This document shows, in pieces, positions 4,156 to 52,076 of a DNA stretch of 64,000 bases; position 1 is the stretch's first letter; each line of letters starts with the position of its first letter. The position numbers and the translations under genes were made by a program. Source of the stretch: an uncultured Gammaproteobacteria bacterium (lineage in GTDB: Bacteria > Patescibacteriota > Patescibacteriia > UBA9570); the NCBI GenBank assembly GCA_964385285.1, contig CAYLOJ010000001.1:24537-88536 (forward strand). Direction: 5' to 3'. The notes under the pieces are model-generated. The model made no database searches, was not told the DNA's origin, and saw nothing but the letters and a program-made list of their open reading frames with translations.

Positions 4156-5742
4156 TTATATCTCAATTTGATCTAGTATAGATTGCATGGCATGCTTTTC
4201 TGAGCGTTGTTCATACTGCACGGTAGTATCCGTTTTAAAGACTGGCAAAACACTGCCGTCGACATAATCTGGTACAGCCAAGGTCATGTCATGCAGGATT
4301 GTGGGCATAACACTGGCAATCTGTTGTTCTGGCAAGGTTTGGGCTTTAATGCCATCCCCATAGGCTATAAACATGCCAACAGAACCATGCTTGCTAGAAA
4401 TTTCATCGATAAATAATTCACTGGAATGAAACTGCCCGACAAACCAATAATCTCCGAATTCATAGAAGAGATCCGGACAACGTTCCGGTGTGTGGTCTCC
4501 ATAGATCTCTTCCTTAGTGTACACTTTAGGAGTAACCGGTTTGCCATCTGGTCCAGTTAAATTTTCCAATTTCGTTTTGATTTCTGTACGTAGTGATAAG
4601 TATTCATCATCGGTCATTGGTTTACCCTGTTTGTATTTACGGCCATCATTGATATAAATTGCGGTCATGGTACGGCCTTTAGGAAAACAAACCCGCGTCT
4701 GTTCAAAATCAATGGTAACGTCTAGATTAATGCGAATTGGCAAAAACGGCTTAGCGACTTTGTGATAAAACCACCGTGCAAGCCGCTCAATCGGTTTAAC
4801 TACACTCAATGCGCGCATCATGCCACTGCTGACGTGAAATTCATATTTTTTTTGCTGTTGCAACGCACTGCGCTGATCATCTTGCTTACTAATATTTTGA
4901 TGGAATTGCGTCGCACTGGCTGCCTTCGTAGTGAGATATCCTTCTTGCTCTAACCACTTATTAAAATAAAATGTGTGTTCATATACCTTGAAGCCATGAT
5001 CAGATAGGATATACAGGTGTGTATCTGTAGGAAGATGATCTACAAACCATTTTAGCTGGTCATCAATATACTTGAATAATTCATAGGCTTTTGGAAAGGA
5101 TCCATCCATTAATTTACTGAACATGGCGTGGGAGATCCAATCAGTCGATGAAAAGAGGTAATAAAAGAGATCCCAGGGTTCTTGTTGCCACAGCTGTTTA
5201 ACCGCTTCCATGTGGTCCTTCTCTAAGGCAATAATATCATCAACGTACTCGCTGTATTTTCCCTTGACGTTCAACTCCTCATCAGGGGATAAGCGATAGC
5301 GCTGCAAAGCAGGATATTTGGATTTAAGCGATTCTGGAAATACACAATTATCTCCGACGGTCAGCATGTCAGTGATAATGGGGCTATTTAATTTTGGTGG
5401 ATAGGAGTTTGGGAGGTTGATTAAAATAGATCGTTTGCCGCGTTGGTGTAGAAGTTCATAGATTGTCTCGACTTGAATGTGACTACTATTGCAGAGATCA
5501 AATTGTTCTAAATCTTCCGTCGGCAACAAAAAATCATAGCAACCATGTTTGCCCGGGTTAACGCCAGTCGCAAACGTTGTCCAGGCCGGTGCAGTATATG
5601 GAGGCATGGTGGAACGCAAATCCGCCCGAGTACCTTCCGTACACAGGCGCTGCAAGGTTGGCATATAGCCTTGTTGCATTAACGGGTCTAACAAACTGAA
5701 TGTCGCACCGTCTAAACCAATAACTGCGATTCGTCTTGCCAT
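4156..5742 (-). CDS. AlkP-superfamily NPP-like phosphodiesterase, paralog 3 of 3
   Basis: 528 aa. VIGLDGATFS ... YTAPAWTTFATGVNPGKHG. Same domain architecture as paralogs 1 and 2. Confidence 0.7.
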   Translation of the reverse strand: MARRIAVIGLDGATFSLLDPLMQQGYMPTLQRLCTEGTRADLRSTMPPYTAPAWTTFATGVNPGKHGCYDFLLPTEDLEQFDLCNSSHIQVETIYELLHQRGKRSILINLPNSYPPKLNSPIITDMLTVGDNCVFPESLKSKYPALQRYRLSPDEELNVKGKYSEYVDDIIALEKDHMEAVKQLWQQEPWDLFYYLFSSTDWISHAMFSKLMDGSFPKAYELFKYIDDQLKWFVDHLPTDTHLYILSDHGFKVYEHTFYFNKWLEQEGYLTTKAASATQFHQNISKQDDQRSALQQQKKYEFHVSSGMMRALSVVKPIERLARWFYHKVAKPFLPIRINLDVTIDFEQTRVCFPKGRTMTAIYINDGRKYKQGKPMTDDEYLSLRTEIKTKLENLTGPDGKPVTPKVYTKEEIYGDHTPERCPDLFYEFGDYWFVGQFHSSELFIDEISSKHGSVGMFIAYGDGIKAQTLPEQQIASVMPTILHDMTLAVPDYVDGSVLPVFKTDTTVQYEQRSEKHAMQSILDQIEI

Positions 5743-5764
5743 AGTTTAACCGCTCGATTATACT
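5736..5764 (+). promoter_or_regulatory. Sigma70-like promoter TTGCCA-17-TATACT, 9 nt upstream of ATG 5774 (leaderless-type)
   Basis: Read directly: -35 5736-5741, -10 5759-5764. The -35 overlaps the start codon of the divergent minus-strand gene (5742). Confidence 0.45.
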
Positions 5765-5773
5765 TGAAATCTG

Positions 5774-7282
5774 ATGAAAAGTCTAGGAGTCAAGATAGCC
5801 ATCATTATGGTACTCACTGTGCTGGCCGGCTGGCTACGCCTAGCTAACTTGGGTGCGGTTAATTTATATAATGACGAGTACTACCAGTTTGAAACGGCGG
5901 TGGGTTGGTTGCGGCTGGGTGAGTGGGTGCGTTATGACTATTATGAGGAAGCCGCTGGCAAGCCATATGATCGTGCTAAGATATTTATCGTGCAGGTGGC
6001 TGCGAGTATTCGAATGTTCGGTGAGACAGAAGCGGCTGGCCGGTTACCCGCAGCACTCTGGGGCACGTTGCTAATCCCAGTTACTATACTGTGTTTACTA
6101 ATCGTTGTGCGCCGTCCTTGGATTGCTTACGGAACTGGATTGGTATTGGTATTTGATGAGTTGAGTATCGGCCTGTCACGGTATGTGCGTATGTACAGCA
6201 TGTTGATGGTATTACTAGTGATACTGGTTACGTTAGTTTACCTACTGCTAGAATGTACCGGCTGGAAAAAACGCTTGTGGTATGGAATGAGTTCGGCTCT
6301 TGTACTCTGTTTAAGTCTACTGATTTTTAAGGAGTTAACATTGGCAATCATTGGAGCTATCGGAATCTATGCGCTTATGCGATCGATTAGTTTTGTCATC
6401 ACGCGTAATTCGGCGGATCGTCCATGGCTGATGGTTTGGTGTATAGGCGCCTTGGGTGGTGTGATCGCTATAGGTCTCACCCTATTGGGCTATAACATTG
6501 TGCCACTGGATGCCATTATTATTCGTACCAATCCGCACTGGAGCTATATCACTGAGTTATTCAACGATTGGCGAGTTCCTGCAATCGCTGCAGGCTTTGC
6601 GTTTGTGGGTACAATCGTGGCGCTGCGGCAATTGCGTAGTTATATGAGTTTTGCGGCTGTGATTAGCCTGGTTGTATTAATCTACTTTGCATTTTTGAGT
6701 CATCGGTGGGACGCACAACGTTATATTAGCATTGTTGTGCCGTTTATTGCGCTGATCACCACCGCAGGAATGGTTGCATCCATTAGGTTTTTATTTGCTC
6801 TCTTACCGCAACCCGTTTGGCTGCGCTGGACATTATTAGTGCCACTGGTTTGTTTAGTAGGGCCTTGGATTACTTTACCAGGAGTGCCCGGCAATAATTT
6901 CACACATCAAACGGCGACTGCCGATCGCTCAACTACTGAACTCGGTTATGCCGATATGCAAACTGCCTATGCGTATGTAGCTAGCCGCATTAGCCCGGGT
7001 GAGGTTGTGCTGATGCAGGGACCGCGCTTTTACTACTGGCCAGATCAAAGCGTGCCGGTCTACTTGTTAGGCGGATACAAAAGTCTATCGCTAGCTGAAT
7101 TTAAGGCTTTGGCTCAACGTGGTACTAGTGGCGGCTGGGTTGTGTTTAATGTCACTCATCAACGGCATTTGCAGGACAACATCAAGACGTATATGTCAAA
7201 ACGGTTCGAATACATACCCGAGCTTAGTGATACCAATGTAGTCGTCTATCACTTTGTACCAGCTGATCTGGTCACAAAGTAA
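5774..7282 (+). CDS. GT-C fold glycosyltransferase (ArnT / PMT-like, family 39/83-like), polytopic membrane protein
   Basis: 502 aa with about 11 predicted TM helices. NLYNDEYYQ 'DE' motif in the first extracytoplasmic loop, typical of lipid-phosphate-sugar dependent GT-C enzymes. C-terminal soluble domain. Confidence 0.5.
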   Translation: MKSLGVKIAIIMVLTVLAGWLRLANLGAVNLYNDEYYQFETAVGWLRLGEWVRYDYYEEAAGKPYDRAKIFIVQVAASIRMFGETEAAGRLPAALWGTLLIPVTILCLLIVVRRPWIAYGTGLVLVFDELSIGLSRYVRMYSMLMVLLVILVTLVYLLLECTGWKKRLWYGMSSALVLCLSLLIFKELTLAIIGAIGIYALMRSISFVITRNSADRPWLMVWCIGALGGVIAIGLTLLGYNIVPLDAIIIRTNPHWSYITELFNDWRVPAIAAGFAFVGTIVALRQLRSYMSFAAVISLVVLIYFAFLSHRWDAQRYISIVVPFIALITTAGMVASIRFLFALLPQPVWLRWTLLVPLVCLVGPWITLPGVPGNNFTHQTATADRSTTELGYADMQTAYAYVASRISPGEVVLMQGPRFYYWPDQSVPVYLLGGYKSLSLAEFKALAQRGTSGGWVVFNVTHQRHLQDNIKTYMSKRFEYIPELSDTNVVVYHFVPADLVTK

Positions 7283-8924: not shown

Positions 8925-8928
8925 AACA

Positions 8929-11964: not shown

Positions 11965-12893
11965 TGCAACTGACGTGTGATGACAGACTTTACAGTGTAG
12001 GGTCGACGATCCTGGGTGTAATAGGATTTAGCCAGTACTTCAGCTAACAAGCCACTGATAAAGAGTTGTAACCCCCCTAAGATTGATAACACCGCTACTA
12101 ACGGCCAGATGCTAGTGGATAGCGGATAAGCCCAACCAATGCGCATCACGGCTAGTACTAGCAGTAAAGCGCTACCGGCAGATACCATCACTAAACCCGC
12201 TCCGCCAAATAGATGCAGTGGTCGATACGCGTAGTTTCTCCAAAACCACAGCCCAAGCATATCGATGAATCCTCGAAAGATGCGTTCTGCTCCATATTTT
12301 GTGATTCCAGCAGTGCGAGGTTGATGATTAACTTCGACCTCACCAACAGAAAATCCGTTTAATCGAAGAATGGCGGGAATAAAACGGTGGCTTTCACCAT
12401 GCAAATCCACATCTACGAAGCAAGTTTTTCTATATACCTTCAATGTGCAACCGGAATCATGGATGCCATCATTCAAAAAAAATGTTCGCAGCCAATGGGC
12501 TCCGCGCGAGGTAAAGCGCTTAGCAATGCTATCACGACGGTGCTTTCTCCAACCTGACACAACGTCTAAGTTGTGAGTTTCTAAGTAAGTCAATAATTTC
12601 GGGATCTCCTCCGGGGGGTTCTGTAAGTCTCCATCGAGTGTAATAAGTAGCTCTCCTTGTGCCTGTTTAATGCCTGCATCGAGCGCGGCAGTTTGACCAA
12701 AGTTTTTACGTAATGTGATTACCGTGATTGGGGATAGTGTCTGCAACAACTCCGCTGTCCCATCAGTACTGCCATCGTCGACAAAAATAATTTCATACGG
12801 TTTGGCTAATTGTGTCATTACAACTACAACTCGACGATGTAATTCGCTTATATTCGGTTTCTCATTATAAACTGGGATGATCACGGTATACAT
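11961..12893 (-). CDS. Polyprenyl-phosphate sugar synthase (DPM1/ArnC/GtrB-like GT2) with C-terminal TM helices
   Basis: MYTVIIPVYNEKPNI...IIFVDDGSTDGT...TLRKNFGQTAALDAGI...LDGDLQNPPEEIPKLL, plus two C-terminal hydrophobic helices. Confidence 0.8.
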   Translation of the reverse strand: MYTVIIPVYNEKPNISELHRRVVVVMTQLAKPYEIIFVDDGSTDGTAELLQTLSPITVITLRKNFGQTAALDAGIKQAQGELLITLDGDLQNPPEEIPKLLTYLETHNLDVVSGWRKHRRDSIAKRFTSRGAHWLRTFFLNDGIHDSGCTLKVYRKTCFVDVDLHGESHRFIPAILRLNGFSVGEVEVNHQPRTAGITKYGAERIFRGFIDMLGLWFWRNYAYRPLHLFGGAGLVMVSAGSALLLVLAVMRIGWAYPLSTSIWPLVAVLSILGGLQLFISGLLAEVLAKSYYTQDRRPYTVKSVITRQLQ

Positions 12894-12916
12894 AAAACAT
12901 GCAAACTATAACACTA

Positions 12917-12945
12917 TTGCGCCATTTTGGCAAGCCCGATATACT
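12917..12945 (+). promoter_or_regulatory. Sigma70-like promoter TTGCGC-17-TATACT, 6 nt upstream of ATG 12952
   Basis: -35 12917-12922, -10 12940-12945. Confidence 0.35.
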
Positions 12946-12951
12946 AGTCGT

Positions 12952-14406
12952 ATGCATAATCTTAAATGGTTGCGGGCTGCGCTGATAATTGCAGGAGTGC
13001 TGAGTTGTGTTTGGATCGTTTACCTATATTTTGGTGGAAATGGCACACTCACCCTAACCTATCAATTTAATGGTACCGGGCAGTGGATCTCTAATTTTCA
13101 ACCGCATGGGAGAGCGCTCGATCTTGAACAAAACCAAGAGAATGGCGAGACGTATCAGCGGTTAGTGGGCGAGCCTACCTATTTTACCGTTACATTACCG
13201 AGCGCCTATGACTCTGTGGAAGTAGCTTTAGAATATCAGAATCCTAATCAAACTCTTATCGAGTTAGGATTAAAGCAAACTACAAACCCAGATTTGTTTG
13301 ATTACCAGATGCAGCCGGTGGAAAATAAATTAGTCGACGCAAGCGAATGGGATAGAGTTGAAAATGATGAATATGTTTTATTGCAGAAGGAACCAATATA
13401 TTCCTCTGTGGAAGAGTTTCTCATCAATCCACCTTTAGATAAACAGGTTGGCACGTATTTAGGGGTCGCACTACCAAATTTTATTGATACCTCATACACG
13501 CCAAATGACGAGCTGTTTAGCGATGTGTCGGTGACATTGCGCGGACGTCATGAATTTTATGCGTACGCGGCAGCAGGAGAGGAAATGCAGTTTTCAGTTT
13601 CGTTAGACACGATCGATTATATCGCGGGGAGTGATACGGCCACGGTTAGTCTATGGCAAGGTAATTCAGTGCTCGGAGAATCCTCAGTGAATAATCACGG
13701 CACGGCCCAACTTGAGGTTAGTGCACCAATGACCGGGGTGTATAAACTCGTAGTGGCAGCTTCCGATGATTTTTTGATCACACACCTACATTCTACGCAG
13801 GAACGACTCGTTGTTGGTAGTGCGATGCATTTGGCTGGTTCAGAAGAGTATCAGGCGAGTGAGGTTCCAATCAATACAGAGCCTACTCTCGTTAACTCCA
13901 ACGCTAGCTGGGTAACATTCATCGCCAAGCATTCCTACGGAGTGGGTAGCTATACAATGTACAACGGAGATTTTGCCGTCAACAAAGTCGATGCACCATC
14001 CACCTGGGTGAATCCCATTGCAAACGCGCATTTTAATTTTGTAGCGCCACAGAATGATCTGTATCTACAAAGTGATAGCTATTTTGCGCTCCCAGGGGCA
14101 ATCGAGTTTGATCCCTGGTTTGGCTTCCGTACAATATCAAGGTATAGCAATGGCGAACATTTGGATTATGTGTTGAGTAAACACTACACTCAGCCGGAAC
14201 GGTTGCGTGGCTGGACTTCAAGCCAAGTTACATTTGATCTTTCTACGGTCACACAAGATCAACCAAATACATTGCAATTTATGTTGTCTGCCCCAGGAGT
14301 CGAAACAACCCCAGAAGGTCTGAAAGTTAGACGCATCACCATTAATGCTAAACAACACGCTTTAACGCTATCCTATCTATGGGAAAAATTATTTGGCGCG
14401 AACTAA
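12952..14406 (+). CDS. Hypothetical membrane-anchored extracytoplasmic protein (N-terminal TM/signal anchor, ~480 aa)
   Basis: Start moved to ATG 12952 (MHNLKWLRAALIIAGVLSCVWIVYLYF), which sits right behind a -35/-10 promoter. No recognisable catalytic motif. Confidence 0.45.
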   Translation: MHNLKWLRAALIIAGVLSCVWIVYLYFGGNGTLTLTYQFNGTGQWISNFQPHGRALDLEQNQENGETYQRLVGEPTYFTVTLPSAYDSVEVALEYQNPNQTLIELGLKQTTNPDLFDYQMQPVENKLVDASEWDRVENDEYVLLQKEPIYSSVEEFLINPPLDKQVGTYLGVALPNFIDTSYTPNDELFSDVSVTLRGRHEFYAYAAAGEEMQFSVSLDTIDYIAGSDTATVSLWQGNSVLGESSVNNHGTAQLEVSAPMTGVYKLVVAASDDFLITHLHSTQERLVVGSAMHLAGSEEYQASEVPINTEPTLVNSNASWVTFIAKHSYGVGSYTMYNGDFAVNKVDAPSTWVNPIANAHFNFVAPQNDLYLQSDSYFALPGAIEFDPWFGFRTISRYSNGEHLDYVLSKHYTQPERLRGWTSSQVTFDLSTVTQDQPNTLQFMLSAPGVETTPEGLKVRRITINAKQHALTLSYLWEKLFGAN

Positions 14407-14570
14407 GCGTAGCCTTTACGATTTGGCTTTTAATCCTATTGATATTGGATTCGGCATTGCATGGCTTCGTGGCCGTTGTTCTTCCACTACCAATTTTAGG
14501 TGGGATTTGGCTAGTGAATTTAATTGCTTGGATCTGGACAAAACGCTCATAGAGTGTTAGTTTATTAGCT

Positions 14571-15290
14571 ATGAAAGGTATTATTTTAGCAGGTGGTAGC
14601 GGCACACGGTTGCAGCCATTGACCAAGGTTACCAGCAAACAGTTGCTGCCGATCTATGATCAACCGATGGTTTTTTTTCCATTGCAAACATTGATTCAAG
14701 CAGGTATTCGTGAGGTGTTGTTTATTGTAGCGCCGGAACACGCCGGTGATTTTTTGAATTGCTTGGGTTCTGGTGCTCAATTCGGCTGTCGTTTCACATA
14801 TGAGATTCAAGACAAACCGGCCGGATTAGCTCAAGGATTATCTCTGGCCGAGACATTTGTAGGCGAAGATAGTTGCGTGCTTATTTTAGGTGATAATATC
14901 TATGAGCACGACTTTAGTAAGGCAGTTAAAGAGTTTACTTCCGGTGCCCATATCTTCGTAAAGCAAGTTCCTGATCCAGAACGATTTGGTGTGGTGGAAT
15001 TAGACGAAAACATGCATGTGTTATCAATTGAAGAAAAACCAGCCAAACCCAAAACCAACTACGCGCAGACCGGAGTCTATATTTATGACGAACACGTATT
15101 CGATCTAATCCGTACGATGAAACCCTCAGCTCGTGGTGAGTTGGAGATTACCGATTTGAATAATCTCTATCTCTCTAAGGGCGTACTGACAGCGAGTGTA
15201 ATTACCGGTGAATGGATTGATGCTGGTACATTAGAAAGTCTCTTTAAAGCTGCAGAATTCAGACGAAAACTAGTATTAAAACAATCTTAG
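14571..15290 (+). CDS. rfbA: Glucose-1-phosphate thymidylyltransferase (short form)
   Basis: MKGIILAGGSGTRLQPLTKVTSKQLLPIYDQPMV... nucleotidyltransferase signature. Followed by rfbC, rfbB and rfbD. Confidence 0.85.
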   Translation: MKGIILAGGSGTRLQPLTKVTSKQLLPIYDQPMVFFPLQTLIQAGIREVLFIVAPEHAGDFLNCLGSGAQFGCRFTYEIQDKPAGLAQGLSLAETFVGEDSCVLILGDNIYEHDFSKAVKEFTSGAHIFVKQVPDPERFGVVELDENMHVLSIEEKPAKPKTNYAQTGVYIYDEHVFDLIRTMKPSARGELEITDLNNLYLSKGVLTASVITGEWIDAGTLESLFKAAEFRRKLVLKQS

Positions 15291-19006: not shown

Positions 19007-19890
19007 GCGCCTTCAGCCTCCATCCAGTTCAGCTCATCCGATTCCACGTCATACCATAACGCGGAGACAGGAGTGGTGTGCTCAGCAATGACCTGGTCGC
19101 TGTAGTGTGTTGCGGCACGCGAATCGATCAGGTGTATCTCCTGGCCCTTGCTGTAGGCAAGATATGGAGTACTGCCAATCCAGGCGGCTGCAGAAATAGG
19201 TGTGCTTAGACGAATGATCGTTTCGCTATTGCTGGTGTGCAAATCAACACGCTCCAATGCAAATTGACTAACTAGTAGCATTGCGTCAGCGCGATCGGTG
19301 TATTGAATGTCTTGTGCAATTCCCAACTGACGACTTTGAATGATATTTCCACTTTGTGTTAATAACTGCACAACGCCAGACTGCCGATTTAAAACTGCAA
19401 TGGTAGATGAATCCACCGGTAAGATTTTGGTCTCATCTTTTAGAATTTCGAGTTGGGATACTGCAGCTTGAAGCGCAATCGACAAGCTATCTACCTCCAC
19501 TTCAAGCGGAGCTTTTTTCTTAGTTTGCGCTGGCTTTGTTAGTAGTGGCCAGAGTCGAAGTGGCTCAATAAGAAGCGTAGTATTGGGTTCAACTGTGAGT
19601 TCGAGATTTACCGGTTGATAGTTTGGTGCTTCAACATGTAAATGATAGATTCCTGGCAGTAGGTGCGTAAAGCTGGCTTGATGTCCGTGGTCGCTTGTTC
19701 CGACTGGCAATAACTGGATCAGCACATCATCCTTGGGTTCGACTGCAATACGAATGCTGCCAGTGGGTTGCAATTTCCAAGTATGAAAATTAAAACCATA
19801 GCCAGCACTATACAATAAAATAGCGGTCAAACCGACAGCAGACAGGCAAAATACCGCTAGAAAGATGAGTTGACGTACCCGCTTAGACAT
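18976..19890 (-). CDS. Membrane-anchored PEGA-domain-like protein
   Basis: N-terminal TM (LIFLAVFCLSAVGLTAILLY), then IRIAVEPKDDVLI...LPGIYHLHVEAPNYQPV PEGA-like beta-sandwich motif. Start set to MSKRV (19890), which sits 9 nt behind a TACAAT -10. Confidence 0.5.
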   Translation of the reverse strand: MSKRVRQLIFLAVFCLSAVGLTAILLYSAGYGFNFHTWKLQPTGSIRIAVEPKDDVLIQLLPVGTSDHGHQASFTHLLPGIYHLHVEAPNYQPVNLELTVEPNTTLLIEPLRLWPLLTKPAQTKKKAPLEVEVDSLSIALQAAVSQLEILKDETKILPVDSSTIAVLNRQSGVVQLLTQSGNIIQSRQLGIAQDIQYTDRADAMLLVSQFALERVDLHTSNSETIIRLSTPISAAAWIGSTPYLAYSKGQEIHLIDSRAATHYSDQVIAEHTTPVSALWYDVESDELNWMEAEGAYALPLRADK

Positions 19891-19898
19891 CGTAGACT
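19870..19898 (+). promoter_or_regulatory. Sigma70-like promoter TTGACG-17-TAGACT, 8 nt upstream of murA ATG 19907
   Basis: -35 19870-19875, -10 19893-19898. Lies inside the 5' end of the divergent PEGA gene. Confidence 0.45.
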
Positions 19899-19899
19899 C

Positions 19900-19926
19900 A
19901 TTGTACATGGCTAAGTTTATTATACA
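19900..19926 (-). promoter_or_regulatory. Minus-strand promoter TTGTAT-15-TACAAT, 9 nt upstream of the PEGA-gene ATG (19890)
   Basis: -10 is the rc of 19900-19905, the -35-like hexamer is the rc of 19921-19926. Lies inside the 5' end of murA, so the divergent promoters interlock. Confidence 0.3.
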
Positions 19927-21172
19927 AGGCAGAGGTCGTCTTCATGGTAGCATTGCAGTGGCAGGTGCTAAGAACCATGCACTTAAGTTATTTGCTGCAG
20001 CACTGCTTACTAAGCAGCCTGTGCATTTAAGTAATGTTCCAGAGATTGAAGACATTTTTCGTTTAAGAGAAATTTTGGAGACAATTGGTGTTGGGGTTAC
20101 ACATGAAGAAAAAGGGGAATACACACTCACTGCAAAACGAATTAACACGACCGTGTTGCCCAAAAAATTAGTACCGAAACTGCGCGCATCTATTTTGCTG
20201 AGTGGTCCTATTTTGGCTCGGTATGGCGAAGTAACATTTCCGCATCCGGGTGGTTGTTGGTTTGGTAAGCGCCCGATCAATTTATTCATTGCTGCATTTT
20301 CAGCGATGGGCGCAAAATGCGTCTATCAAAGCGGTGTGTATCGTTGCATTGCTCCCAAAGGCGGATTGCGCGGAACGCATTATATTTTTCCCATCGTGAG
20401 TGTTACGGGCACGGAGACACTCTTATTGGCTGCGGCGACAGCACACGGAACAACGGTAATTGAAAATGCTGCTCGCGAGCCGGAGGTTGCCGCACTGGCT
20501 GAATTCCTCAATGCTTGTGGTGCCCACATTACAGGTGCTGGTACCAGCACGCTAACGATTCATGGGGTAAAGCAGTTGCACGGCGGAGAAACTGTAGTGA
20601 TTCCTGATCGTATTGAGGCCCTATCCTTCATTTTTCTTGCATTAGCTGCACGTCAAAAACTTACCATCACGCAATGTCGCCCGAGTGACATTTCTGTCCC
20701 GTTGCAACTGTTAAGAGATGCCGGGGCAAAATTTGAAATTAGTGATCACCAGATTGTTGTGCTCCCATGGAAAAAATTAAAGCCGCTGCACGTTGTGACT
20801 AGGGAATATCCAGGTTTTCCAACGGATGGGCAATCACCATTAACAGTGTTGCTCACTCAGATTGCTGGCCAGAGTGAGGTAATGGAAACCATTTATTCAG
20901 ACCGACTATTTTTTACTGATATGCTCAATCGTATGGGGGCGAAAGTTACTATGCACACTTCGCAACATATTACGATTGATGGTGGTACTAAGCTGCGTGC
21001 CAAAGTTGTTGATAGCCCGGATTTGCGTGCGGGGATTGCAATGGTGATTGCTGGGATAATTGCACGAGGAACGACTGTCATTGGTAATGCTTACCAGATT
21101 GATCGTGGCTACGAAGCGATCGATACTCGACTCCGTAATATTGGAGTAAATATCCAGCGTCTAGAGGATTAG
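19907..21172 (+). CDS. murA: UDP-N-acetylglucosamine 1-carboxyvinyltransferase
   Basis: [28 protein letters not shown]..., full-length EPSP-synthase-fold MurA. Start at ATG 19907, behind a TTGACG-17-TAGACT promoter. Confidence 0.9.
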
Positions 21173-21179: not shown

Positions 21180-21208
21180 TTGACCAGCAATTTTTTTCCT
21201 GTTAGACT
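21180..21208 (+). promoter_or_regulatory. Sigma70-like promoter TTGACC-17-TAGACT, 8 nt upstream of ATG 21217 (S41 peptidase)
   Basis: -35 21180-21185, -10 21203-21208. Confidence 0.45.
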
Positions 21209-21216
21209 ATCACGAT

Positions 21217-22419
21217 ATGTCAGAGTCGCGTTCTGGAAAATGGTTTGTATTAGGTTTGTTCCTAATCACCCTTACAGCAGTTGCCTTTACAGGTGGCTAT
21301 GGTTTAGCGACGGTCAGACAGCAAGTGGACAAGGCTAATCCAGAGTATACTGATCCGGCTCAATCTGAGCTATTTTGGGATGTATGGGATGCCTTAAAAA
21401 CAGATTATCTTACGCAGCCTGTAGAGGACAAACAATTGTATTATGGTGCCATTAGCGGATTAGCCGCGTCGGTAAATGATCCTTACACAGTGTTTTTGGA
21501 TCCTGAACAGACTAATCTGCTACTCGATACAGTAAATGGAGCCTTTGAGGGAATTGGTGCAGAAATCGGCGAACAAGATGGTCAGATTGTTGTAGTTGCG
21601 CCACTGCCGGGAACTCCAGCAGAGAAGGCTGGTTTATTGCCCAAGGATATGATTCTTAAAATTGATGACCTAGAAACGACTGGCTTGTCTGTTGATGAGG
21701 CCATCTTTAAGATTCGTGGTGCAGAAGGAACGGATGTTAAGCTCACCATTTATCGTGAAGGCGATACGGATCTTCGTGAAGTAACTGTGCGTCGTGCCAA
21801 AATCGATTTGCCTAGTTCAACTTACACTACAGTACAAGCGGCTAGTGGAGAAAAGATTGGCGTGCTAACGATTAGCACGGTGAACGGAAACTCTGCTGAA
21901 GATGTGCGGGAATTATTAAATTCAGTTGTGCTAGAAGAGCCGGCTGGTTTAATTCTTGATTTGCGCAATAATCCAGGTGGAGTACTCAGTGATGCCATTG
22001 ATATTACTTCACTATTAATTGACAGCGGCGTAGTTGTCTCTGAACAATTCAATGATGGTACAACACGTTCATACCAAACCACTGGTCAGCCATTACTGCC
22101 AAATAAACCAAAATTGGTAGTACTGATTAATGGCGGCAGTGCATCTGCAGCCGAGATCATTGCTGGGGCCTTGCAAGATCACAATCGTGCTTGGTTAATT
22201 GGAACGACTTCATTTGGAAAAGGTGTTGTACAAGATGTTCGTGAATTTCCCGATGGCTCGGCTCTAAAGATGACGATCTCCAGTTGGTTAACGCCAAACG
22301 GGCGCACTATTCAACATACTGGCATCGAACCTGATCAAGTGGTGGATTATACAGCTGCTGAGAGTGCAGATACTCAAGATAGTCAGATGCAGGCCGCGAT
22401 CGATTACCTAGTTAAATAA
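21217..22419 (+). CDS. C-terminal processing (tail-specific) peptidase, S41 family, with PDZ domain
   Basis: N-terminal TM anchor. GIGAEIG...VVVAPLPGTPAEKAGL PDZ domain. ILDLRNNPGG and S41 catalytic region. Confidence 0.85.
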   Translation: MSESRSGKWFVLGLFLITLTAVAFTGGYGLATVRQQVDKANPEYTDPAQSELFWDVWDALKTDYLTQPVEDKQLYYGAISGLAASVNDPYTVFLDPEQTNLLLDTVNGAFEGIGAEIGEQDGQIVVVAPLPGTPAEKAGLLPKDMILKIDDLETTGLSVDEAIFKIRGAEGTDVKLTIYREGDTDLREVTVRRAKIDLPSSTYTTVQAASGEKIGVLTISTVNGNSAEDVRELLNSVVLEEPAGLILDLRNNPGGVLSDAIDITSLLIDSGVVVSEQFNDGTTRSYQTTGQPLLPNKPKLVVLINGGSASAAEIIAGALQDHNRAWLIGTTSFGKGVVQDVREFPDGSALKMTISSWLTPNGRTIQHTGIEPDQVVDYTAAESADTQDSQMQAAIDYLVK

Positions 22420-22449
22420 TACGACTAATTAATAAGTAATACTGATTTT

Positions 22450-24874: not shown

Positions 24875-24882
24875 ACCGCCGG

Positions 24883-24911: not shown

Positions 24912-24940
24912 CTTGGTCAGAATCAGCCATACTAGAGCCT

Positions 24941-29280: not shown

Positions 29281-29298
29281 TCTGTATTAATCTTTAGT

Positions 29299-32121: not shown

Positions 32122-32123
32122 CC

Positions 32124-40170: not shown

Positions 40171-40380
40171 TTACGGCTTTTTCACCAGTTTAACCAGCTT
40201 GTTGGTTGTTGTGATGATTAGCAGGTTGGAGGTAATGAAGGCAATGAAAATGCCTGCAATTACATATTTTGTTGAGCCATAACGTTGGGTTAGAGCCCAG
40301 CCAATTCCACCGAACAGGGCGAGGGGCCCGAGGATATTTCCGGTTGAAACTGCCAAAGCGGTGACTAACTGTGATTTCAT
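40171..40380 (-). CDS. AtpI/AtpZ-like small membrane protein at the head of the atp operon
   Basis: 69 aa, two TM helices. Sits directly upstream of atpB, as in many atp operons. Confidence 0.55.
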   Translation of the reverse strand: MKSQLVTALAVSTGNILGPLALFGGIGWALTQRYGSTKYVIAGIFIAFITSNLLIITTTNKLVKLVKKP

Positions 40381-40389
40381 GGCGCCTCT

Positions 40390-40418
40390 ATTCTAAAGTA
40401 AAACCCTAGATGGGTCAA
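40390..40418 (-). promoter_or_regulatory. atp operon promoter TTGACC-17-TAGAAT, 9 nt upstream of the atpI-like ATG (40380)
   Basis: -35 is the rc of 40413-40418, -10 is the rc of 40390-40395. Confidence 0.45.
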
Positions 40419-44000: not shown

Positions 44001-46261
44001 ATGAACGTGCACAAAGTACTGATCGTAGTATCCCGTGGACAGAACGAATGCCCAAACTAGCAGCTATGTTAGGCTATAGTGAGCAGGTTGGAGACAGGCT
44101 AGCATCCATTTCATTTTACACGGCGTTAGGTATTGCTAGCCGTGAATTTTTGCCTGTGCGTATTGCTGCCTCAGCGTATGCCGGTTCTCGGTTGGGTGAT
44201 CTAGCTGCTACATATTTGATTCACAGAAGCGACAAAGCAATTGCGAAGGAACGTAACCTTGAACCTGATAGGCGGTTAAATAAGCAACGGCTAGAAGAGA
44301 TTGCAGCGATCCTTGATCCGAACGTTCAGTATAGGGAATTGGCAAAGTTGAATGTAGGAGCATTGCGCGAACAACTAACTGAGCGTTTGAGACGACAAGC
44401 ACCCCGCAAATATGAGGAGCTGCGCGCGTTGATGGATCGCTATGACCAAATGGTTCTAGCTTGTGCGGCGAACCGAGGCATTAGGAATATTGTTGCAATG
44501 AATACACGGCGTTTAGAAGATGAGCGTTACAAACATACACATGAATTAAGAACTAAGAGTTTCGACAAGTGGATGCGTAGAGGATTTCAGGCTTTAGGAG
44601 CCCTTGCCGGTGTATCATTTGCGTTTGCGTTATCGTCTCTGGCGGTAGATACCAATGAACACCACAGCGATGCTGCGGGTCAACCAGCTGAGCCACCCAC
44701 ACCTGGTCAACCAGTCACTTCCGGAACAAATCCAGATGCAGGCACTCCGGCACCTTCAATTGACAATCATCCAGATACAACTCCAGCACCCGAAACTCCT
44801 TCCGCCCCACCCGCAGCTGAACTCCCTCCAGCTACACCACCGGCGCCCGCACTGGAACCTAATCCAACTCCTTCACCTGTCACTACTGAGCAATTAAGCC
44901 ACGTAGTACACAAAGGTGAGGGCTTAAGTCATGCTCTGCGTGGTCAGGATTCTGCTCGCACAATTCAGCATGAGTTAACTGATACCAAAGTAATGCTGAA
45001 TGGGCATGAAGTAAGCTTAAACGATACGGGTGTCCGTGAAGCTGGCACTGTCAGTGCGGTTATTCACGATGTTGGTGGCCATAAAACGATCGATTTGTAT
45101 GATGCGCATGATGGACATCAAATTACCGGCAGTGAGATGGATAAATATCTCTACATTCTTAATGATGGTACACATGGAACCGGAGATCACGTATCTGGAC
45201 ATGACATTTCCGTAGCCCATGGCGATGATGTAGGTGAAGGGTCGATACACGAGACAGCTAACCCAATTGAAGGCAAGGTAAGTGCAGATTCAGTGCCACC
45301 TGTAGAATCACTGTTTCGCAACCCATTGCCAACTGATACCGAGTCTGGCTACGTGCAGTCTGGATTACAAAACTATGTAGAGACGCATCCGGAGTGGTCC
45401 GCATTATCTCACCTATCACCTGAACAATTGACGCAACGTCCGGAGTTGAGCATTATTCGTGATCAACTGAAGCGTGAGTATCTGCAGCATCTGGGGTCTA
45501 CACCGACTGAGGCCGGTGATGGTGGTGCAGGCGGAGCAGTTGATTTGGCAGCCACAGAAGGATCCAAGTCAACCTCACTTGATGGGCTTGTAAATACAGA
45601 AAGTCATCGCTTAACAGAGGCGGGAGTGAGAGAGCTCGGGTTACAGGAGCATATCTCAGGCACCGGAGAGATCCAAGATTACAAGAGCTTTTCAAAGGAG
45701 GTACTTGCGTTATTACAGTCAGATCATCGCGATCGTATCACTGGACCAAATGGATTAGTCTTCGAGGATCGTGGAGGAGTGCTGTATGTTGACGTGGCCG
45801 GCGGAGCACAAGAACATTTCCCGCTGGATGAAAAACTGTATCACGAGTTAATGGTGGAATACAAAACGCATGTTGATAGTGCGTTGGACGGAAAATTTGA
45901 CAAGGAGTCATTCTATGATGTGTTGGATCGCGCTGAAACACACCATGCTCTCCGAACATTTGAACAGCCGGATTGGACCCTAAACTTTCTCAATGAAGGC
46001 AAAAGCTATGCCGCGTTTCAGGATGAAATTCGGCACATCATGGATATTCATGATACCAACCAATTTAGGACAGCAAACGGCCTAACGTTCATTCAAGAAG
46101 GCGATCAATTATTCGTGCGTGCCACCATCTCAAAATATGAGGTAACTGCTGACTTATATGTTGCATTGATGAAGCATTACGATAAACTGTTGATCAGCCC
46201 AGATTACCGAGGTGTCTTCGACGGCGAGCAGCTAGCTAAGGTAGTTGAAGATAGCAAATAA
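41066..46261 (+). CDS. Giant multidomain protein (1731 aa): N-terminal PP2C-family Ser/Thr phosphatase, two predicted TM helices, Pro/Thr-rich linker, unknown ~450-aa C-terminal domain
   Basis: PP2C motifs: NEDSF, AVFDGMGGYDGG, GTTGA, AHAGDSRVY, LTQDDN, LLLTSDGIHD, DDRTSLLVEW. Hydrophobic Gly-zipper segment AGYLGGGLGLAWATGGLGLPVLGVTGAIAAV and a second TM (ALGALAGVSFAFALSSLAV). PT-rich linker of about 70 aa. Confidence 0.7.
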   Translation: MTGTSATREKKRGGLIETARRFKSEVDALKQRDSALNSISAAIKLFDLRARERNQQLNPGEAEALHRLTLEAQRLRARTERKVEAVFDERKRFWPNSAVATEAHPDHPMRNEDSFIKDDINQLYAVFDGMGGYDGGDKASATAALVTKTELSGLPEDIALADLVERVKQAFVKAGEAVDSADYNRGKSEDQKAGTTGALVKIHVDEKGKRTAIVAHAGDSRVYKRKKNGELVCLTQDDNLLQLLSARGLLTDARVNEFNRKFANVTDPATELSDVVLFEAVDLMDPRNGRIAYTEKVLYRLCYVVTKTVNGDEPTITTHELEEGEKLLLTSDGIHDLVPDANIAQQLDAARDADAAARGLVSDSKRGLRVGPGGKRDDDRTSLLVEWEDTLQDEQEIRTIAYLEAAKKGRLLLIPLTWVDQAAFAEARRTVAGTADEAALKRAFLTTREADDQPDKHAGQWISAGAEDWVKEGDIDTKAANVAAMLENGNFDAFNGDPREIEELRNLLTGPFSRSRKIRVVEYVKRKRRSGDEVASKFMGIDADLDSALSAIPGETELRAEFAAETLAMVRKGFLDNSFNSFNLAIGTDQPENRATVIGVFQQLQIDASAAGQGDRLYYWIATLLNRLSDQTRSWLIEGLTSIGGLCAEAASKYHEVQLSEPEVRNIPNALGGNIDIKNRKFLYELTIAAQLIDDVERAKGIASLDYIQSEAILGDPATFGELAKLVFPEGAAPTDAEMTAAVKALADRMQLDENTVAHVIQEQRIAFADLAAQRERSERSLKLQLAKAAGYLGGGLGLAWATGGLGLPVLGVTGAIAAVRFADAIGTHSFRSSKQARYSAELQSQLTSSKQAFTGLATAEQDYAHATGRFQELLANTAAALANAKEATARISVGRTSTHDDGEYVRSLVFEGNKSPQKYALEQATNDYLRSSPADPDYHDKYQALLKAQAELNTVLGPELAAAEAQVAILNVDMIVSDERAQSTDRSIPWTERMPKLAAMLGYSEQVGDRLASISFYTALGIASREFLPVRIAASAYAGSRLGDLAATYLIHRSDKAIAKERNLEPDRRLNKQRLEEIAAILDPNVQYRELAKLNVGALREQLTERLRRQAPRKYEELRALMDRYDQMVLACAANRGIRNIVAMNTRRLEDERYKHTHELRTKSFDKWMRRGFQALGALAGVSFAFALSSLAVDTNEHHSDAAGQPAEPPTPGQPVTSGTNPDAGTPAPSIDNHPDTTPAPETPSAPPAAELPPATPPAPALEPNPTPSPVTTEQLSHVVHKGEGLSHALRGQDSARTIQHELTDTKVMLNGHEVSLNDTGVREAGTVSAVIHDVGGHKTIDLYDAHDGHQITGSEMDKYLYILNDGTHGTGDHVSGHDISVAHGDDVGEGSIHETANPIEGKVSADSVPPVESLFRNPLPTDTESGYVQSGLQNYVETHPEWSALSHLSPEQLTQRPELSIIRDQLKREYLQHLGSTPTEAGDGGAGGAVDLAATEGSKSTSLDGLVNTESHRLTEAGVRELGLQEHISGTGEIQDYKSFSKEVLALLQSDHRDRITGPNGLVFEDRGGVLYVDVAGGAQEHFPLDEKLYHELMVEYKTHVDSALDGKFDKESFYDVLDRAETHHALRTFEQPDWTLNFLNEGKSYAAFQDEIRHIMDIHDTNQFRTANGLTFIQEGDQLFVRATISKYEVTADLYVALMKHYDKLLISPDYRGVFDGEQLAKVVEDSK
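44680..44885 (+). repeat. Low-complexity Pro/Thr/Ala-rich linker-coding segment inside the giant gene
   Basis: GQPAEPPTPGQPVTSGTNPDAGTPAPSIDNHPDTTPAPETPSAPPAAELPPATPPAPALEPNPTPSPV. CCA/CCG/ACT-rich DNA that produces a spurious alternative-frame ORF (44655..44897). Confidence 0.6.
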
Positions 46262-46279
46262 CTTTGCTATTATTAGCCG

Positions 46280-46711
46280 ATGCCTGTTAGTCGATTTCTA
46301 ATGCTACTCGGAGTTTCTGGCGCTGCTAGCCTAGCGGCTTGGATTGTAGTACTCGTGTTTATTGACCCGACACAAACTGGATTCATTGGCATTGCACTGT
46401 TCTATGCTACATTGGCCTGTTGGATGTTCGCAGCCATTACGTTATTGGGTTTGCTGACACGTGTGCTCATGAGGCGCATGCAGCGGCAATCGATCATCGC
46501 TTTCCGACTAATGCTGCCAACACTGCGTCAGGCATTATGGAGCACATTAATTGTAGTAATCTCTTTAGTGCTTGCCGCGCATGAGCTGTTCTCCTGGTTT
46601 ACTGCTACATTGCTCGTTTTATTCTTTACTTTATTAGAAGGTTTTCTCTATAGTCTACAAAAAGATTCCTCAAATGACTCGTCCCATGAATCCATCACAA
46701 CTGCTCAGTAA
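46280..46711 (+). CDS. Hypothetical 4-TM membrane protein
   Basis: 143 aa, four hydrophobic helices, directly downstream of the giant gene. Confidence 0.4.
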   Translation: MPVSRFLMLLGVSGAASLAAWIVVLVFIDPTQTGFIGIALFYATLACWMFAAITLLGLLTRVLMRRMQRQSIIAFRLMLPTLRQALWSTLIVVISLVLAAHELFSWFTATLLVLFFTLLEGFLYSLQKDSSNDSSHESITTAQ

Positions 46712-47702: not shown

Positions 47703-47714
47703 ATCTGAACTCCT

Positions 47715-49994: not shown

Positions 49995-52028
49995 ATGGCT
50001 AAAAAAACTGGATCCGCATACGGCGCTCAACAAATTACAGTCTTAGAAGGTTTAGATCCTGTCCGTAAACGTCCTGGGATGTATATCGGCAACACGGCTC
50101 ATGCTGGGTTGCATCATTTGATCTGGGAAGTCGTTGATAACTCCATCGATGAAGCGATGGCTGGTTATTGCACCGAAATTACAATTACCTTATTGCCTGA
50201 TCATTTTGTTTCCGTAGAAGATAATGGTCGTGGTATCCCAGTCGAAAAACATCCCGTTACAAAAATTTCTAGTTTAGAAACTGTTTTAACCAAGCTGCAT
50301 GCTGGTGGAAAATTTGGCGGTGAAGGGTATAAGGTATCTGGTGGTTTGCATGGCGTGGGTGTTTCCGTCGTGAACGCATTGTCTTCTGAATTAATTGCCC
50401 AAGTGAAACGAGAAGGCAAGCTGTATGAGCAAAAGTTCAAAATTGGAAAACCACAAGGTAATGTTAAAATGATTGGCAAATCGGATCACGATGGTACCAT
50501 CATTACCTTTAAGGCTGATGATTCCATTTTCACAGTAAATGAATATGAATGGAAATATATTTTGGATCACTTGCGCCAGCAGGCCTACTTGACCAAGGGC
50601 TTGAAGATGAGTATTTGGGATAAACGTGACGAACGCAATGTCCAAAGTTATACCTACTACTTTGAAGGCGGGGTAGCATCCTATTGCCGTCACCTTAACC
50701 ATCTTAAAGATGTTAAGCAGGACAAAGTATTTTATATTGAAAAAGATGTTGATCAAGTTAAAGTTGAAGTCGCCGTACAATATAACGCCGATTACAATGA
50801 ATTAGTCTACGGATTCGCCAACAACATTCATACAATTGAAGGTGGCATGCACGTACAAGGTTTCCGTACAGCACTAACACGTACAATTAACAACTATGCG
50901 CGCAAACAAGGCTTTCTCAAGGAGAAAGATGGTAATTTGCAAGGTGAAGATGTCCGTGAAGGTTTAACCGCAGTCATTTCCGTCAAACTACCTGAGCCGC
51001 AATTTGAAGGTCAAACCAAAGCTAAATTAGGCAACGCTGAAATTAAGCCGATCGTTGAAAGTGTTTTTGGTGATTATTTTGCTGCCTTTCTTGAAGAAAA
51101 TCCACATGATGCGCGTGAAATCATTCATAAATGCTTGATTGCTCAGCAAGCCCGCGACGCCGCCCGTGCCGCGCGTGATACCGTCCTCCGTAAGGGTGCT
51201 CTTGAGGGAATGACCTTGCCAGGTAAGCTGGCAGATTGTTCATCACGCAAAGCTGAAGAATGTGAGCTGTATGTTGTAGAGGGTGATTCGGCCGGTGGCT
51301 CTGCCAAGCAAGGTCGTGAACGTCGCTTTCAAGCTATTCTGCCATTGCGTGGTAAAATTTTAAACGTCGAGAAATCGCGTTTAGACAAAATGCTAGCTAA
51401 CAACGAGATCAAAAATTTGATCATCGCCATGGGTACGAGTATTGGCGAGCAATTTGATCTTACTAAGCTCCGCTATAATCGTATTATCATCATGACCGAT
51501 GCTGACGTCGATGGAGCCCATATCCGCACTTTGCTACTCACGCTTTTTTTCCGTCACTTTCCTGATCTGATTAGCCAAGGGCACTTGTTCATCGCCCAAC
51601 CTCCGTTGTATCGCATTAGCAAAGGACGTGAAGTACATTATGCCTATGCAGATCCTGAAAAAGAAAAAATCGTTGCTGATTTTACAGCTAAAGCTAATGC
51701 AAAATCCGGAAAAAAAGGTAAATCGGAGCCGGCAGAAGAGGTAGTCATTGTAGAAACAGAAGCGGGGGAAGGTGAGGTTGATACTACAGGCGTAGGTCAA
51801 AATATCTCCGGTATTAATATCCAACGCTATAAAGGTTTGGGTGAAATGAATCCAGAGCAGCTTTGGGAAACCACCATGGATCCAGCTCGTCGCGTGATGC
51901 AAGTCGTTACTATGGATGATGCCGAAAAAGCTGATGAAATCTTCGATATCTTAATGGGAAGTGAAGTAGCACCACGCAAGCGCTTTATTCAAACCCACGC
52001 GAAGTCTGTTACAAATTTAGACATTTAA
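49995..52028 (+). CDS. gyrB: DNA gyrase subunit B (type IIA topoisomerase ATPase subunit)
   Basis: GHKL ATPase (GLHHLIWEVVDNSIDE), TOPRIM (EGDSAGGSAKQGR), and a C-terminal tail with a GyrB-typical insertion. ParE cannot be strictly excluded. Confidence 0.8.
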   Translation: MAKKTGSAYGAQQITVLEGLDPVRKRPGMYIGNTAHAGLHHLIWEVVDNSIDEAMAGYCTEITITLLPDHFVSVEDNGRGIPVEKHPVTKISSLETVLTKLHAGGKFGGEGYKVSGGLHGVGVSVVNALSSELIAQVKREGKLYEQKFKIGKPQGNVKMIGKSDHDGTIITFKADDSIFTVNEYEWKYILDHLRQQAYLTKGLKMSIWDKRDERNVQSYTYYFEGGVASYCRHLNHLKDVKQDKVFYIEKDVDQVKVEVAVQYNADYNELVYGFANNIHTIEGGMHVQGFRTALTRTINNYARKQGFLKEKDGNLQGEDVREGLTAVISVKLPEPQFEGQTKAKLGNAEIKPIVESVFGDYFAAFLEENPHDAREIIHKCLIAQQARDAARAARDTVLRKGALEGMTLPGKLADCSSRKAEECELYVVEGDSAGGSAKQGRERRFQAILPLRGKILNVEKSRLDKMLANNEIKNLIIAMGTSIGEQFDLTKLRYNRIIIMTDADVDGAHIRTLLLTLFFRHFPDLISQGHLFIAQPPLYRISKGREVHYAYADPEKEKIVADFTAKANAKSGKKGKSEPAEEVVIVETEAGEGEVDTTGVGQNISGINIQRYKGLGEMNPEQLWETTMDPARRVMQVVTMDDAEKADEIFDILMGSEVAPRKRFIQTHAKSVTNLDI

Positions 52029-52047
52029 ACACCGCCCCCTGGGGTTG

Positions 52048-52076
52048 TTGACGTATTTTTACAGTTATTGTATAGT
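52048..52076 (+). promoter_or_regulatory. Sigma70-like promoter TTGACG-17-TATAGT upstream of secE-nusG-rplK-rplA
   Basis: -35 52048-52053, -10 52071-52076. Confidence 0.4.

Follow-up and report, generated by a model that had tools for sequence, protein, structure and literature searches.

Sigma-70-type promoters directly upstream of start codons

We analysed a 64,000-nucleotide stretch of contig CAYLOJ010000001.1 (hereafter the window), a densely coding sequence of ~45% GC in which recognisable promoters stand immediately in front of many start codons, the -10 box lying so close to the ATG that the predicted mRNA would carry a 5' untranslated region (UTR) of a few nucleotides or none. Leaderless or near-leaderless transcription is in our judgement the best explanation of this arrangement (we put its probability at roughly 0.8), and would concern above all the genes that lead operons. 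Judged by protein identity and synteny, not by phylogenetic placement, the source of the window is a Kerfeldbacteria-like bacterium of the Candidate Phyla Radiation (CPR). Its MurA shares 82% and 73% identity with those of two metagenome-assembled genomes (MAGs) titled Candidatus Kerfeldbacteria (loci L001 and L039, respectively), 65% with that of a 'Patescibacteria group' MAG (L003) and 46–51% with those of Kuenen- and Falkowbacteria-type MAGs; gene order is kept with L001, L039 and L003 across 10.9–31.2 kb of the window (~20 kb), and a metagenome contig (L042) is syntenic over ~27–50 kb.

An initial annotation of the window had described a recurrent pattern, TTGACN-N17-TANANT-N6–9-ATG, and had read it as a sign of pervasive leaderless mRNAs. 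In its exact form the pattern occurs four times where 0.08 matches are expected, a number that none of 100 dinucleotide-preserving shuffles reached, and all four matches fall on verified gene starts named in that annotation (murA, the S41 peptidase, rpmA and the atp operon; Table 1). Dropping the ATG from the search adds a fifth match, at 52048–52076. A relaxed pattern (TTGNNN-N16–18-TANNNT-N5–9-ATG) gave 23 hits, against 14.6 ± 3.7 in Markov-1 simulations; 11 of the 23 are at curated starts, where ~0.6 would be there by chance. Among the 58 genes with curated starts, 24 have a TANNNT box ending 5–9 nt before the start (~5 expected). Equal frequency at random ATGs had been named in advance as the outcome that would speak against the proposal, and the frequencies are far from equal: the box precedes 22 of 53 start ATGs (41.5%) and 194 of the 2230 other ATGs on both strands (8.7%), and with an added -35 match of at least 4/6 or a TGn the figures become 12/53 (22.6%) and 26/2230 (1.2%).

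The same signal was recovered with a position weight matrix (PWM) built from Escherichia coli sigma-70 statistics, independent of the present data, with percentiles of random ATGs as thresholds. Scores above the 99th percentile were found at 42% of operon-first genes (Mann-Whitney p = 1.6e-11) and 14% of operon-internal genes (p = 5.7e-6), whilst a control in a shifted register (gap of 15–19 nt between box and start) placed 7–8% of genes above the 95th percentile, near the expected 5%. When both strands of the window (128 kb) were scanned for the two boxes together, six of the top nine hits lay 6–9 nt and a seventh 11 nt away from a gene start, the remaining two being the secE promoter and a site antisense within atpA. 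Full-promoter hits scoring below ~12 occurred at chance frequency (17 vs. 13.6 in shuffles) and were left uninterpreted.

The box favours the first genes of operons, 30 of 53 of which carry TANNNT at a 5–9-nt gap with a peak at 7–9 nt, and it is twice as frequent there as at internal genes. The best promoter within 150 nt of these 53 genes has a gap of 5–9 nt in 20 and of 10–15 nt in seven; in the other 26 it lies elsewhere in 13 (12 further upstream, one at <5 nt) and 13 have none above threshold. The term pervasive fits operon-leading genes, 42–57% of which have such a promoter, and not all genes; most internal ones are promoterless.

Composition or annotation might in principle produce such a pattern, through AT-rich start regions, through TAA and TAG stops at the ends of preceding genes, or through a choice of starts that matched the motif. 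A few hits at internal genes are indeed stop codons, and the initial annotation had shifted three starts inward to suit the motif. However, the dinucleotide-shuffle, random-ATG and shifted-register controls all contradict an artefact, motif-blind start calls (the first ATG of each open-reading frame, ORF) yield the same signal, Bacteroidota loci that likewise lack Shine-Dalgarno (SD) sequences remain at chance, with 3% of genes above the 99th percentile, and both hexamers are conserved in orthologs. We regard this explanation as barely credible.

Promoter identity and conservation

We pooled the window with five Kerfeld-like loci (L001, L039, L003, L042 and L043), taking the first ATG of each ORF as the start. 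Fifty starts aligned on TANNNT alone revealed a -35 element that had not been selected for, at a spacing of exactly 17 nt (T 74%, T 54%, G 60%, A 60%, C 48%), together with an extended -10 TG (T 58%, G 50%). In the -10 box the consensus reads TAnACT rather than TATAAT, with A in 60% at position 4 and C in 58% at position 5. A TTGAC at 17 nt and a TGn at the extended -10 position mark these elements as promoters and not as a translation signal, and they are of sigma-70 type, with a -35 and/or an extended -10 at canonical spacing. The resulting model, TTGAC-N17-(TGn)TAnACT, would provide a promoter description for a lineage without genetics, readable next to its start codons.

Conservation was assessed in 22 orthologous promoters from up to five genomes (those of rpmA, the S41 peptidase, murA, the atp operon, the RmlA-like gene and the gene at 46280). 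Pairwise identity was 0.89 in the -35 and 0.80 in the -10 hexamer, compared with 0.46 in the spacer, 0.37 in the 12 nt upstream and 0.43 in the discriminator, and the spacer was 17 nt long in all 22. At the 12952 locus the N-terminus of the protein varies between L001, L039 and L003, yet the ATG is found 7–8 nt after TATACT or TATAGT (6–8 nt overall); that the ATG tracks the -10 box despite a changed N-terminus points to selection acting on how far the promoter lies from the ATG.

These data bear on a second reading, in which TAnnnT close to the ATG serves translation without being an SD sequence, for instance as an A/U-rich site for the ribosome or S1 as in the 'group B' genomes of Bacteroidetes type, and is carried on leadered mRNAs. 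A lineage without SD sequences, upstream regions that are A/T-rich and G-poor, and a strong U at position -1 that extends to internal genes are all in its favour, the last of these indicating that some translational start context does exist. It does not lead one to expect an unselected TTGAC at a fixed 17 nt or a TGn, nor -35 hexamers that are the best-conserved positions in orthologs, and a ribosome-binding site (RBS) should occur at all genes, not twice as often at the first; the 16-nt space between murA and its divergent neighbour (below) is moreover too small for a leader. We therefore consider a translation signal very unlikely, and retain sigma-70-type promoters as the reading of these elements.

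The arrangement is unevenly distributed among relatives. Genes above the 99th PWM percentile make up 21% in the window and 28% in the Kerfeld-like loci, 4–12% in other CPR groups and 3% in Bacteroidota, and the fusion of promoter and ATG at murA is kept only in the Kerfeld clade, a sister group having TTGAAA...TATAGT at 11 nt from the ATG. The trait is thus strongest in the Kerfeld clade and weaker elsewhere in the CPR.

Start codons and divergent gene pairs

A claim about distances to the ATG depends on correct start codons. Pfam domains begin at residues 1–7 of MurA, L27, RmlA and L9, that is at their N-termini, so these ATGs are correctly placed; all supported sites of the leaderless type begin with ATG, and orthologs agree on the starts. 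Several start codons had been moved inward from those of the mechanically listed ORFs, and for 12952 and 19890 this is backed by comparison with orthologs: the window's upstream in-frame ATG at 19890 is out of frame in L003 and followed there by TAG, a loss of frame that supports the inner start.

Divergent pairs leave the least space. Opposing ATGs are separated by 16 nt between murA and the gene at 19890 (19891–19906), 31 nt between 5742 and 5774, 58 nt between 12893 and 12952 and 66 nt between rpmA and the DUF4013 gene. In the first pair both -10 boxes are adjacent within the 16-nt gap, and the -35 box of either gene falls inside the coding sequence of the other; in the last, the -35 boxes overlap on opposite strands in a palindromic TTGTCAA. 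Spacing this tight leaves no room for a 5' UTR, and opposing ATGs 16–66 nt apart would illustrate how genome streamlining removes such regions. From these overlaps, binding of RNA polymerase at paired promoters should be mutually exclusive.

The pairs also bear on a third reading, which accepts the promoters and makes leaderless mRNA a minor product, the main transcripts arising from upstream promoters or read-through and being translated in an unrecognised, leader-dependent manner. Genes in the window are packed and co-oriented, making read-through likely at the cluster-internal sites 46280, 56759 and 59912, and some strong promoters are leadered (secE) or stand at gaps of 11–14 nt (12893 and 5742). 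Yet no upstream gene on the same strand exists at any of the four divergent pairs, the distance to the -10 box at 12952 appears to be under selection, and among the 40 first genes with any promoter within 150 nt, the best one stands at a 5–9-nt gap in 20. This reading is improbable in our view, and leaderless or near-leaderless mRNAs as main products remain the better account.

Listed starts elsewhere in the window also call for attention. Nearly all real starts appear to be ATG, and listed TTG or GTG starts are probably wrong where an ATG lies just inside (ATG 16626 in ORF 16623, ATG 40547 in ORF 40541). In ORF 17119 an RmlB-like domain begins only at residue 16, ORF 8025–9017 overlaps its neighbour by 89 nt, and ORFs 58510–59013 and 58916–59902 overlap by 98 nt, which probably places the nadA start further in. 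The tRNA-Pro(CGG) at 62282–62355, the one tRNA of the window, extends into the 5' end of ORF 62297–63784 as mechanically listed (Cas4/PD-(D/E)XK and RNase H-like domains), the true start of which is more likely ATG 62360.

Absence of Shine-Dalgarno sequences and the base at -1

The initial annotation had noted no SD sequences in front of these genes or before atpA and atpD, and this is borne out. SD-like 4-mers precede 4% of starts in the window against a background of 6%, and 0–6% in single Kerfeld-like loci (1% pooled); taken together, the figures are 1–4% against a background of 5–6%. The mean duplex energy with the canonical anti-SD is -0.79 kcal/mol at starts compared with -1.6 to -1.9 at random positions, a depletion that matches the Bacteroidota loci; it reaches -4.15 in PVC control loci and -2.78 kcal/mol in Microgenomates loci. 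Neither a promoter nor an SD was found before atpA or atpD.

In the murA of a Shapirobacteria (Microgenomates) locus (L022, near position 10001), a canonical AGGAGG stands 6 nt upstream of the ATG. Set against its absence from Kerfeld-type loci, SD use differs sharply between CPR superclades.

At internal genes we found no alternative positioned RBS motif and no enriched G-rich k-mer; only TAA/TAAT (stop codons and A/T richness) and a -1 pyrimidine are enriched upstream. First and internal genes have in common the -1 pyrimidine (T 60%) and A/T richness, whilst TAnnnT is linked to promoters and biased to first genes. As most internal genes have neither promoter nor SD, they must start by another SD-independent route. 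Intercistronic distances, mostly -38 to +18 nt, would fit termination–reinitiation.

The base at -1 is T in 52–74% of starts compared with 18–26% of random ATGs, in the window, in Kerfeld-like loci and in other SD-less loci of Parcubacteria type (the window, L001, L003–L021, L027, L030, L031, L033–L035, L037, L039, L042 and L043), and a pyrimidine stands there in >80% of genes in the window and the Kerfeld-like loci. Operon-internal genes without a promoter show the bias as well; Microgenomates (33%), Bacteroidota (35%) and PVC (16%) do not. Pairing of U(-1) with A37 of the initiator tRNA may account for it or, equally, a rule for the transcription start site (TSS) of pyrimidine at -1 and purine at +1.

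Predicted transcription starts and initiation

In bacteria generally, the distribution of TSSs is centred 7 bp downstream of the -10 box (PMC12641261). At 34 high-scoring sites the gap between -10 box and ATG is 5 nt in one, 6 in five, 7 in 12, 8 in 11 and 9 in five, a purine occupies the seventh or eighth nucleotide after the box in 32 of the 34, and sites with an 8–9-nt gap typically read purine-pyrimidine-ATG. From the gaps and purine positions, transcripts are predicted to begin at the AUG or 1–2 nt before it, in agreement with the initial annotation, and about half would have a 2-nt leader (5'-R-Y-AUG) rather than none.

In the mechanism that we propose, the housekeeping RNA polymerase holoenzyme would read ordinary sigma-70-type promoters (TTGAC, a 17-nt spacer often ending in TGn, TAnACT), whose -10 box ends 6–9 nt before the ATG at about half of operon-first genes and at a minority of cluster-internal ones. 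Transcription would start 7–8 nt after the box, on the A of the AUG where the gap is 6–7 nt and 2 nt before it where the gap is 8–9 nt, so that mRNA leaders would measure 0–3 nt. Ribosomes, possibly as 70S particles, would then load straight onto the AUG at the 5' terminus, cistrons further downstream would start by termination–reinitiation or another SD-independent route, and U at -1 may help initiation. To call the arrangement direct sequence evidence for leaderless translation, as had been done, was an overstatement: the promoters with their position, composition and conservation, the correct start codons and the lack of SD sequences are seen in the data, and the exact TSSs, the loading of ribosomes and reinitiation are deduced from them.

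All computational tests capable of contradicting the promoter and leaderless reading turned out to favour it. Several observations nevertheless weigh against this account. Some 40–55% of operon-first genes have no such promoter, and some leaders are short (11–14 nt) or long (secE, ~91 nt). The gaps peak at 7–8 nt and not at 6, so many leaders may measure 1–3 nt and be functionally rather than strictly leaderless, and additional upstream promoters may give leadered isoforms. Some TANNNT boxes at internal genes are the TAA or TAG stops of upstream genes (e.g. at 33077, 36528 and 52924), and for genes outside the curated set of the window the first ATG of the ORF was simply taken as the start.

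Comparison with known systems

The closest parallel is with Actinobacteria (Mycobacterium tuberculosis, M. smegmatis, Streptomyces and Corynebacterium), the 'group C' of GeneMarkS-2, which share the -10-to-start architecture of the window. In genomes of this group a -10 box (TANNNT) stands ~6–8 nt before the first gene's start, 25–50% of transcripts are predicted to be leaderless and initiation depends on AUG (PMC6028130). The window agrees with them in a box placed as a Pribnow-type element, in its sigma-70 identity and in a correct AUG, and departs from them in lacking SD sequences on the remaining genes, as Actinobacteria carry these on leadered and operon-internal genes. It differs further in its strong -35 TTGAC, frequent TGn, TAnACT -10 box and ~45% GC, and in belonging to an unrelated lineage.

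Deinococcus-Thermus likewise combine a large leaderless share with a sigma-70-like promoter abutting the start codon, and 167 of 262 mapped genes are given as leaderless in Deinococcus deserti, both as relayed by a later study (cited in PMC6028130). That is a different phylum, in which TSSs were mapped experimentally, whereas in the window they are read from sequence alone. Deinococcus still uses SD sequences for leadered genes.

SD-less genomes of Bacteroidetes type ('group B'; Flavobacterium johnsoniae, PMC6847099) resemble the window in having no SD enrichment and an equally weak match to the anti-SD. The Bacteroidota loci differ from it in having no promoter at the start codon (3% vs. 21–28% here) and in a -1 U of 35% as opposed to 52–74%. 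Within the CPR, about half of Parcubacteria 16S rRNAs, mostly from lineages lacking uL1, show no detectable anti-SD motif (Tsurumaki et al. 2022, PMC9297842). These, like the window, belong to a CPR lineage in which SD–anti-SD pairing is apparently unused, although what is described there is a feature of the rRNA, tied to the absence of uL1 and given with no mention of leaderless mRNAs (PMC9297842), whilst the genome of the window encodes uL1 and also bL9. Neither the window nor the 90 other loci used for comparison contain rRNA, as judged by a search for conserved 16S and 23S motifs and, on the window, an Rfam run.

U directly 5' of the AUG enhances initiation through 'quadruplet' pairing, U(-1):A37 (Hollerer & Jeschek 2023, PMC10018350). 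The effect in E. coli is modest and modulatory, as against a U at -1 in 52–74% of the starts of SD-less CPR loci. Work by Esposito in 2003 is reportedly also associated with U(-1):A37 pairing between mRNA and initiator tRNA. To our knowledge, a genome-wide -1 U bias of this size has not been described.

A limited full-text literature search found no report describing leaderless genes in CPR, Patescibacteria, Saccharibacteria or Parcubacteria; the architecture is of a known kind, and it is the lineage and the complete absence of SD sequences that appear to be new. Actinobacteria, Deinococcus and archaea already provide established cases of the leaderless mechanism, and the finding is of value for a new lineage and for annotation rather than for a new principle. 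The CPR make up a large share of bacterial diversity, almost entirely uncultured and with reduced ribosomes, and we know of hardly any study of their translation initiation. If about half of the transcription units are leaderless and SD sequences are absent, the clade would be a natural test case for SD-independent initiation, reinitiation and U(-1):A37 pairing; gene callers that depend on an RBS would also misplace starts in these MAGs, and several ORF starts in the window would need an inward shift. More speculatively, and with rather less than even odds, initiation in Kerfeldbacteria, and less markedly in other CPR of Parcubacteria type, could be wholly SD-independent, with 0–3-nt leaders on first cistrons, reinitiation downstream and 'UAUG'–A37 as the sole mRNA signal, a minimal system (possibly ancestral-like or driven by streamlining) matched to the reduced CPR ribosome, the anti-SD being lost or unused.

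Individual sites in the window

Sites are collected in Table 1. The three further starts in the initial annotation that we retain, 5774, 12952 and 19890, have the proposed -10 box and distance and a weaker -35 (TTGCCA, TTGCGC and TTGTAT, respectively), with a spacer of 16 nt at 19890; the 'PEGA' label of the last gene rests on a weak Pfam match (E = 0.11). Not included in that annotation were the sites at 14571, 24941, 46280, 56759 and 59912, and those of the extended -10 type at 32124 and 54060.

Table 1 Promoter and start sites in the window by position, with boxes, spacer and distance to the ATG in nt.
Feature	Coordinates	Strand	Boxes and remarks
502-aa gene of unknown function	5736..5776	+	TTGCCA(5736)-17-TATACT(5759)-9-ATG(5774); PWM 12.5
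Divergent GT2 glycosyltransferase, strong promoter	12891..12933	-	TTGCCA-17-TATAGT-11-ATG(12893); PWM 14.0
484-aa protein of unknown function	12917..12954	+	TTGCGC-17-TATACT(12940)-6-ATG(12952); start moved inward from 12877
RmlA-like nucleotidyltransferase	14535..14573	+	TGGACA-17-(TGt)TAGTTT-7-ATG(14571); kept in L001, L039 and L003, gap 7 in all
murA promoter and start	19870..19909	+	TTGACG-17-TAGACT-8-ATG(19907); architecture identical in L001, L002, L039 and L003
Divergent gene, weakly PEGA/CarboxypepD_reg-like	19888..19927	-	TTGTAT-16-TACAAT(19905..19900)-9-ATG(19890)
S41 (Ctp-like) peptidase promoter and start	21180..21219	+	TTGACC-17-(TGt)TAGACT-8-ATG(21217)
rplI (bL9) start	22438..22452	+	AATACT 6 nt upstream; TATACT at 7 nt in orthologs
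rpmA (bL27) promoter and start	24872..24911	-	TTGACA-17-(TGg)TACAAT-8-ATG(24874); PWM 16.5, top promoter score of the window
DUF4013 gene	24905..24943	+	TTGTCA-17-CATACT-7-ATG(24941); start moved inward from TTG 24905
metG start, leaderless promoter unsupported	29270..29301	+	18 nt after upstream gene
rmuC, candidate extended -10 promoter	32109..32126	+	(TGg)TACACT-6-ATG(32124); no clear -35
atp operon promoter, small AtpI/Z-like first gene	40378..40418	-	TTGACC-17-TAGAAT-9-ATG(40380)
143-aa gene of unknown function, upstream of pheS/pheT	46245..46282	+	TTGAAG-17-(TGc)TATTAT-6-ATG(46280)
secE promoter, counter-example with leader	52048..52176	+	TTGACG-17-TATAGT (52048-52076), ATG 52174
dCMP/cytidine deaminase, candidate extended -10 promoter	54045..54062	+	(TGa)TATACT-6-ATG(54060)
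tmk, candidate operon-internal leaderless promoter	56724..56761	+	TTGTCG-17-(TGc)TAATCT-6-ATG(56759)
nadC, candidate operon-internal promoter	59877..59914	+	TTGAGC-17-TAGACT-6-ATG(59912); TAG of -10 is the nadA stop codon

The atp operon promoter recurs in L042 (TTGACT-17-TACTCT-9) and L043 (TTGACG-17-TAAACT-9). At 46280 the promoter spans the stop codon of the 1731-aa gene upstream, with the -35 box in the last codons of that gene and the -10 box in the 18-nt gap, and the L042 ortholog reads TTGAAT-17-(TGt)TATTCT-6-ATG. The -10 box of 5774 overlaps, on the opposite strand, the TATAAT (5762..5757) of the divergent phosphodiesterase gene 5742(-), which lies 14 nt from its ATG. The transcript of the glycosyltransferase at 12893 is predicted to have a short leader of ~4 nt and so not to be strictly leaderless; the gap between promoter and ATG in its orthologs is 11–23 nt.

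Two sites were rejected as leaderless, and one further candidate was discarded. The promoter at 52048–52076, which ends at the last coordinate of the span given in the initial annotation, is separated by 97 nt from the secE ATG downstream, at 52174, with a predicted leader of ~91 nt, and secE is the clearest exception to the leaderless rule. metG, listed as a probable case at 29299, lacks a credible -35, and none of L039, L003 and L042 has its -10-like box; reinitiation or translational coupling is more likely there. The TATAGT at atpB (40144), with a gap of 9 nt, recurs in neither L042 nor L043 and is probably due to chance.

The secE leader (52077–52173) has features of its own. A 5-bp GC hairpin with a T-run occupies 52086–52102, directly after the predicted TSS, followed by an eight-codon ORF at 52110 and an AGGAG 30 nt ahead of the ATG. 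Folding is modestly above that of shuffles (z = -2.2) and no Rfam family matched the leader, which from these features could be an attenuator or a small RNA.

Other genes of the window

Pfam matches identify glycosyltransferases, dTDP-rhamnose genes, murA, the Ctp/S41 peptidase, rplI, pyrG, rpmA, several aminoacyl-tRNA synthetases, a complete F-type atp operon, a 1731-aa PP2C-domain protein, gyrB, secE-nusG-rplK-rplA and a NAD biosynthesis cluster. Three tandem paralogues of 528–531 aa, of the type I phosphodiesterase/nucleotide pyrophosphatase family, occupy 968–5742 on the minus strand, and a GGDEF-domain (diguanylate cyclase-like) protein is encoded at 15294–16616 (+) within the rhamnose/glycosyltransferase cluster. 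The 1731-aa protein (41066–46261, +) has an N-terminal PP2C phosphatase domain, segments predicted to be transmembrane or rich in Pro/Thr, and a C-terminus that is long and uncharacterised. Its identity to the L042 counterpart, which is divided into two ORFs, is only ~28–31%. Finally, a compact cluster for NAD de novo synthesis and salvage (57800–62262, +) comprises nadE, a cytidylyltransferase-like nadD/nadM, nadA, nadC and nadB, an unusual biosynthetic capacity among CPR genomes.

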